A stretch of 33,145 nucleotides of DNA from IMG/VR virus record IMGVR_UViG_2534681702_000003, positions 1 to 33,145 of that record. The stretch is one strand, 5' to 3'. Origin of the DNA: a virus. Lineage: Duplodnaviria; Heunggongvirae; Uroviricota; Caudoviricetes. The translations under genes and the position numbers were made by a program. The notes beneath the pieces are model-generated. The model searched no databases and was not told where the DNA came from. It saw nothing but the letters and a program-made list of their open reading frames with translations. Below are positions 16,611-16,687 of this stretch, in pieces. The number at the start of each line of letters is the position of its first letter. Positions within the stretch are counted from its first letter, which is position 1.

Positions 16611-16687
16611 CCGCCATTAGCTCATCGACAGAGAGTGCCAGCTTTCGAAACTGGCTGTGTGGGGCTCGGGTCCCCGATGGCAATCCA
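16611..16687 (+). tRNA. tRNA-like element, possibly tRNA-Arg(UCG), non-canonical
   Basis: Cloverleaf-like but acceptor stem has 2 terminal mismatches, anticodon stem GCCAG/CTGGC encloses a 9-nt loop CTTTCGAAA, T-loop CTCGGGT atypical. Confidence 0.4.

Follow-up and report, generated by a model that had tools for sequence, protein, structure and literature searches.

The middle element of the tRNA cassette in the window (the whole stretch of 33,145 nucleotides of viral DNA analyzed here) is very probably a pseudogenized argN allele of the lambdoid (Stx-type) prophages of Escherichia and Shigella. A preliminary description had pointed to an odd cloverleaf element at this place on the plus strand, and all features given there are present when read directly from the sequence. 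Among the readings it offered, the degenerate pseudo-tRNA is the one that has held up: three stem pairs otherwise invariant and four conserved core bases have been lost, tRNA scores lie below threshold, the element is unannotated in RefSeq, and uncompensated changes accumulate at about the neutral rate.

The tRNA cassette and its middle element

Positions 16528-16777 of the plus strand contain three units of tRNA size with spacers of 7 and 13 bases between them, and a terminator-like hairpin comes next (Table 1). The gene upstream encodes WP_001394189.1 (DNA-methyltransferase) according to the annotation of a 100%-identical locus in E. coli 504838. Both flanking tRNA genes had been regarded as good ones beforehand, which is confirmed by their Rfam scores; ileZ, with its anticodon CAT, is labelled Met by ARAGORN. 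The hairpin, a pattern match comprising an 8-pair stem with six G-C pairs and a subsequent TTTTT, is the probable end of the tRNA transcription unit when transcription is not antiterminated. The cassette itself is located downstream of a DUF1133 gene, which takes the Q antiterminator's position in Stx phages. No promoter for the cassette reached the threshold of the promoter scan. By eye, a TTGCAG-17 bases-TATTAT arrangement scoring below this threshold is discernible at 16493-16518, ending about 10 bases before ileZ; it could serve as a weak sigma-70 promoter for the cassette, and its TTATTAT part also occurs 5' of ileZ in VT2-Sakai. Downstream of the cassette, positions 16821-17173 hold a hypothetical ORF that is truncated at its 5' end and listed as a pseudogene in RefSeq, together with a small DUF3927 gene; next come holins and an M15 endolysin. 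Elsewhere in the window, Rfam detects a DicF RNA (4533-4584, minus strand, 66.9 bits), the sok antitoxin RNA of a hok/sok-type module (12111-12285, plus strand, 108.7 bits) and an IS009 RNA (32902-33105, plus strand, 129.2 bits).

Table 1 Positions of the tRNA cassette and adjoining features in the window
Feature	Position	Strand	Basis or remark
DNA methyltransferase gene, upstream of the tRNA cassette	15429..16478	+	349-aa ORF
ileZ, tRNA-Ile2, anticodon CAU, intact	16528..16603	+	ARAGORN; Rfam tRNA 72.5 bits; RefSeq tRNA-Ile
Spacer ileZ/middle element, TCACATA	16604..16610	+	Flank identical to Stx2a_WGPS6
Middle element, very probably decayed argN (tRNA-Arg(UCG) pseudogene)	16611..16687	+	Alignment, Rfam, ARAGORN
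Spacer middle element/argO, TTATCTGCATTAT	16688..16700	+	Identical to VT2-Sakai
argO, tRNA-Arg(UCU), intact	16701..16777	+	ARAGORN (TCT); Rfam 70.1 bits; RefSeq tRNA-Arg
Terminator-like hairpin (16791-16810) and T run, directly 3' of argO	16791..16818	+	Consensus scan

As claimed in the preliminary description, the acceptor end of the middle element carries two terminal mismatches: CCGCCAT faces ATGGCAA, resulting in C1.A72 (16611/16683) and C2.A71 (16612/16682) followed by five good pairs, so that five of the seven pairs of an acceptor stem are left. The minimum-free-energy fold likewise contains the reported anticodon stem GCCAG/CUGGC with the 9-base loop CUUUCGAAA, and the reported T-loop CTCGGGT is present at 16665-16671 within the stem TGGGG/CCCCG. 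The anticodon TCG occupies 16645-16647, and the 3' end reads TCCA, with CCA at 16685-16687. According to the Rfam tRNA model and homologous genes, the ancestral anticodon arm consisted of a 5-pair stem, CCAGC/GCTGG, and a 7-base loop; the 9-base loop of the window element results from its closing pair 31-39 having become C.A (C31.A39, 16642/16650) through G39A alone. Although U33 is present, the element thus lacks a five-pair anticodon stem with a 7-base loop. A further lesion, overlooked in the preliminary description, is found in the D-loop, where A18 and C19 (16628-16629) replace G18 and G19. Altogether, the 21 pairs comprise 16 Watson-Crick, 2 G-U and 3 mismatched pairs, and of the tertiary-core bases G18/G19/T54/U55/C56/A58 only U55 and C56 are retained, the others being A18, C19, C54 and G58.

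With default settings, ARAGORN calls the two flanking genes of the cassette and leaves the middle element uncalled. At a threshold relaxed to 95%, it returns a tRNA-Arg(tcg) of 77 bases which covers exactly 16611-16687 and is drawn with the same three C.A mismatches. Rfam at gathering thresholds reports ileZ and argO only, the middle element remaining unreported, while in a permissive search of 16480-16830 the bases 16611-16684 align end to end with the tRNA model (RF00005), with 1-72, 2-71 and 31-39 as non-standard pairs. The corresponding score of 23.7 bits (local E = 0.009) is below the gathering threshold of 29. A high-scoring canonical tRNA with other boundaries, named beforehand as the outcome incompatible with a non-canonical element, was not seen with ARAGORN or Rfam.

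Relationship to prophage argN

The 351 bases around the cassette match 289 phage records as well as 3,074 records from 3,062 E. coli genomes. They are 100% identical to a lambdoid prophage of E. coli 504838, in which RusA, a DUF1133 protein and a methyltransferase precede the tRNAs and holins and an endolysin follow, and about 91% identical to Stx2-converting phages, whose depositors annotate a tRNA-Ile and two tRNA-Arg genes just 5' of stx2A. In the GenBank annotation of AP012539, the cassette genes are named ileZ, argN and argO, which we take to be their names in the 933W literature as well. The literature searched yielded nothing on ileZ, argN or argO; one published genome description gives one 'tRNA-Met' and two tRNA-Arg genes adjoining stx2a (PMC7946995).

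In the middle slot of both VT2-Sakai and Stx2a_WGPS6, ARAGORN calls an Arg(tcg). Compared with VT2-Sakai argN, the middle element of the window is identical at 64 of 77 positions, and 11 of the 13 differences are transitions, mostly C:G to T:A (in standard numbering G18A, G19C, C20aG, C25U, C32U, G39A, C47U, C49U, U54C, A58G, U63C, G71A and G72A). Its nearest intact-looking allele, L048, shares 67 of 77 bases. Relative to VT2-Sakai, ileZ shows no difference, argO one and the spacer before argO none; the differences thus cluster in the middle gene (13/77 vs. 1/153 in ileZ plus argO, Fisher p = 3e-6). After ileZ, the alignment reveals two extra bases (AT) in VT2-Sakai at the CCA/spacer junction. 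Judged from these alignments, the middle element is a homologue of prophage argN, tRNA-Arg(UCG). Like argN of the Stx-converting lambdoid phages (933W, VT2-Sakai, Stx2a_WGPS6), it lies in the slot between ileZ and argO, is bordered by homologous, near-identical spacers, shows homology over its full length of 77 bases and carries the anticodon UCG, which had been inferred correctly from the sequence beforehand. Unlike argN of these phages, it has broken pairs 1-72, 2-71 and 31-39 and is devoid of G18, G19, T54 and A58. Moreover, the prophage in the window lacks stx genes downstream of argO, where Stx phages carry stxAB.

A cloverleaf formed by chance in intergenic DNA could be considered on the grounds that the folding energy of the element is unremarkable, being no better than that of shuffled sequences (z-score -0.03). 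Given the identity to argN alleles at 64 to 67 of 77 positions, the probability of such a coincidence is practically nil; the same slot, the identical spacers and a continuous series of intermediate alleles leading to intact argN contradict it as well. A protein-coding reading was also set aside, since only spurious antisense ORFs extend over the tRNA genes and RefSeq annotates none. Patch recombination from another tRNA was discarded as the main cause of the divergence, as the differences are scattered single bases, mostly transitions, and form no block. Three linked sites (18, 25 and 27) probably stem from exchange among argN alleles.

Probable decay of the window-type allele

The argN slot was collected from at least 120 IMG/VR prophage contigs using the ileZ 3' end as anchor, and a further 35 contigs were collected with a 17-mer specific to the window allele; IMG/VR contigs are not independent samples of genomes. 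Scores with the Rfam tRNA model descend from 54.8 bits for VT2-Sakai argN via 46.5 bits (L048), 43.4 bits (L011) and 43.0 bits (WGPS6 argN) to 26.4 bits for the ETEC H10407-type allele and 23.7 bits for the window allele, while a sub-allele of the window lineage with a further stem mutation gives no hit at all. Similarly, the cloverleaf energy of the window element is -17.4 kcal/mol, as compared to -28.3 for VT2-Sakai and -31.3 for the best fully paired allele. Pairs 1-72, 2-71 and 31-39, which are Watson-Crick pairs and invariant in all 35 distinct canonical-type alleles, are broken in all eight window-type alleles, and the share of paired stem cells amounts to 96.6% in the former vs. 82.7% in the latter. 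A change on both sides of a pair, and hence covariation, was found for none of the pairs among the window-type alleles. Many alleles still called tRNA by the tools carry the A58G T-loop or one to three stem mismatches. The otherwise well-paired L048, for instance, lacks G18 and has the same CTCGGGT T-loop as the window element at the score given above.

As to the consequences of these lesions, G72A and G71A unpair the first two acceptor pairs, G39A opens the closing pair of the anticodon stem and thereby turns the 7-base into a 9-base loop, and G18A, G19C, T54C and A58G remove the elbow contacts between D-loop and T-loop. With a conserved tRNA gene on either side, the element is presumably co-transcribed with ileZ and argO, and its excision by tRNA-processing enzymes may still be possible. 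A stable L-shape and a role in translation are unlikely, with both folding and charging presumably failing. While ileZ and argO supply tRNAs for the rare codons AUA and AGA/AGG, the host has an abundant tRNA-Arg(ICG) that already reads CGA. A UCG decoder might therefore be dispensable, so that loss of argN function was probably tolerated under relaxed selection.

Within the window-type lineage (38 loci), eight haplotypes with nine segregating sites in 77 bases were found, namely 18, 25, 27, A29U, G43A, G51A, G52A, U55C and the change of CCA to CTA. This count is conservative, the search pattern having allowed no variation at 17 of the 77 positions. Sites 18, 25 and 27 split two main haplotype groups, the alternatives at 25 and 27 being a Watson-Crick and a G-U pair; all pair-breaking changes in the lineage are uncompensated. 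In the same 38 loci, ileZ, argO and both spacers contain no segregating site (9/77 vs. 0/173, Fisher p = 2e-5). As the flanks beyond the cassette are mosaic, with different modules in different prophages, the diversity baseline was restricted to 21 loci with upstream DNA at least 98.9% identical. Here, six sites segregate in the middle element (pi 0.029), two in a 49-base intergenic stretch (pi 0.020), 24 of 1,050 in the methyltransferase gene (pi 0.0044) and none in ileZ and argO (pi 0), and no significant difference is seen between the middle element and third codon positions (p = 0.13). The window-type lineage evolves at about the neutral rate, and such a rate beside two frozen tRNA genes is the signature of a pseudogene. 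Characteristic of tRNA pseudogenes, the lesions are located at positions invariant in intact homologues, and the change beside the conserved genes is neutral-like and uncompensated. Sub-lineages in which CCA has become CTA additionally argue that the window element makes no functional product. Slightly surprising for neutral decay are the 13 changes in the gene vs. none in the spacers; probably, the spacers are unchanged because they are AT-rich and short (20 bases) and because alleles recombine.

Several features nevertheless speak against decay and for a still-functional tRNA-Arg(UCG) tolerating a weak acceptor end, C.A at 31-39 and a C54/G58 T-loop. The anticodon UCG, U33, U55, C56, the encoded CCA, 18 of 21 pairs (counting G-U) and the full length of 77 bases are kept, as are A20 and C35, the main identity elements for E. 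coli ArgRS. Furthermore, G58 T-loops occur in alleles still called tRNA such as L048, and the window element itself is called tRNA-Arg(tcg) by ARAGORN at the 95% threshold; accepted after a threshold cut of 5%, it is a near-miss and not a wreck. On the other hand, G18, G19, T54 and A58, which to our knowledge make up the elbow in all E. coli elongator tRNAs, have been lost together, three pairs that never vary in 35 other alleles are disrupted, the Rfam score stays below 29 and about 11-14 kcal/mol of cloverleaf stability are gone. Sub-lineages have moreover acquired the CCA-to-CTA change, U55C and extra stem mismatches at a neutral-like rate, with ileZ and argO unchanged. In view of the lost pairs and core bases and the sub-threshold scores, a working 'tRNA-Arg(UCG) with unusual features', also put forward in the preliminary description, is therefore improbable.

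A tRNA-derived RNA with a non-translational role, be it a spacer or scaffold for ileZ/argO processing, a decoy for an anticodon nuclease directed at tRNA-Arg or a small regulatory RNA, would be in line with the absence of indels and the preserved length and boundaries in all eight haplotypes, with persistence in several prophage backgrounds and with the position of C32U and G39A at the flanks of the anticodon loop. The argN slot also changes unusually readily, one case being an anticodon-arm swap to Lys(UUU) (see below), and this could hint at non-decoding selection. Yet, besides tRNA, the permissive Rfam search of 16480-16830 gave weak, chance-level matches and thus no other family, the fold is no more stable than those of shuffled sequences, and neither covariation nor any compensated change is present. 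New mutations affect all arms as well as the CCA end at roughly the intergenic rate, and no conserved alternative structure or target-pairing segment was found. The regulatory RNA suggested earlier hence finds no support, and a non-translational role of this kind is most improbable.

Of 5,426 complete E. coli genomes, 85 contain the window-type lineage, which occurs in several prophage contexts; many of the carriers are ETEC, among them H10407. Such a fairly wide spread is a point against decay. In none of the 40 genomes listed out of these 85 does RefSeq place a feature on the middle element. In ETEC H10407 (L124, 2425-2674), the locus tags ETEC_RS06620 (tRNA-Ile) and ETEC_RS06630 (tRNA-Arg) flank the decayed argN, and the tag between them is missing; possibly, a feature was annotated at this place in an earlier version. 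A cross-species scan gave eight loci, seven of which contain the cassette (five Escherichia or Shigella records and two metagenome-assembled ones), while the eighth shares only an ileZ-like anchor.

The argN slot in other prophages

In 54 canonical-type cassettes, diversity per site (pi) is lowest in ileZ (0.006) and rises via argO (0.016) and argN (0.066) to 0.175 in the spacer that precedes argO. Intact-looking argN is therefore under constraint, though 4 to 10 times less than its neighbours, and the argN slot as a whole evolves fast. The three-gene architecture was recovered by ARAGORN in 64 of 126 sampled cassettes.

The commonest single allele of the slot in the IMG/VR sample (roughly 27 of 126 loci), referred to as 'type 2', is found for example in L014, L164 and L168 (410-520) as well as in L167 (432-512). 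It keeps the acceptor, D and T arms, whereas about 28 bases, which fold as a 7-pair hairpin with a 3-base loop and contain no anticodon, take the place of the anticodon arm and the variable loop. In RefSeq, it appears as 'tRNA-OTHER' (81 nt) in an Stx2e prophage and is unannotated in O157:H7 ATCC 43888. Like this allele, the window element is a non-canonical argN derivative of the same cassette that still has its acceptor, D and T arms; unlike 'type 2', where the anticodon arm has given way to unrelated bases, it keeps this arm and has decayed by point mutations. Another form, located at 7270-7343 of L008, in L159, L162 and about 15 other loci, is a tRNA-Lys(UUU)-like gene on the argN acceptor/D/T scaffold. 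Here, UCG has changed to UUU, pairs 7-66, 27-43 and 30-40 carry compensated changes, C33 replaces the near-universal U33, and tRNA-Thr(UGU) and tRNA-Gly(UCC) genes follow in place of argO. This gene looks like a case of anticodon remodelling of a phage tRNA. Additionally, L022, L049 and L095 have a single hybrid gene made of argN and argO, apparently formed by a deletion extending from one of their two similar anticodon loops to the other. An argO that ends just past the anticodon loop and runs on into unrelated DNA is seen in L161 (E. albertii) and three IMG/VR loci.

UCG alleles with odd T-loops, the anticodon-less 'type 2' and the Lys(UUU)/C33 gene might all be taken as products of diversifying selection acting on the whole argN slot, with decayed argN being retained as a tRNA-like RNA. 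If true, a candidate role would be that of a decoy or resistant substitute against host or competitor anticodon nucleases cutting tRNA-Arg or tRNA-Lys; we consider this proposal hardly credible.

Pseudogenization within the Ile-Arg-Arg cluster has been described for stx2i prophages, where the arrangement reads 'tRNA-pseudo, tRNA-Arg' (PMC13641118). As in the window, one member of the cassette is degenerate and its neighbours are intact; unlike in the window, other prophages are concerned and, by the wording of the report, a different member of the cluster may be affected (PMC13641118). For the lineage of the window-type allele itself, i.e., that of ETEC-type prophages such as the one in H10407, no description was found in the literature searched.

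The middle element of the window is, in all likelihood, an ordinary pseudogene and not a new kind of RNA, and a decayed argN is in itself of little importance. For annotation purposes, an argN pseudogene label could be given to the 97-base gap that separates ileZ from argO in ETEC-type prophages. Beyond that, selection appears to act unequally within one phage tRNA cassette, in which the decoders of AUA and AGA/AGG are frozen while the UCG decoder decays or is remodelled. This contrast between ileZ/argO and argN lends modest support to the codon-supply explanation of phage tRNA genes.
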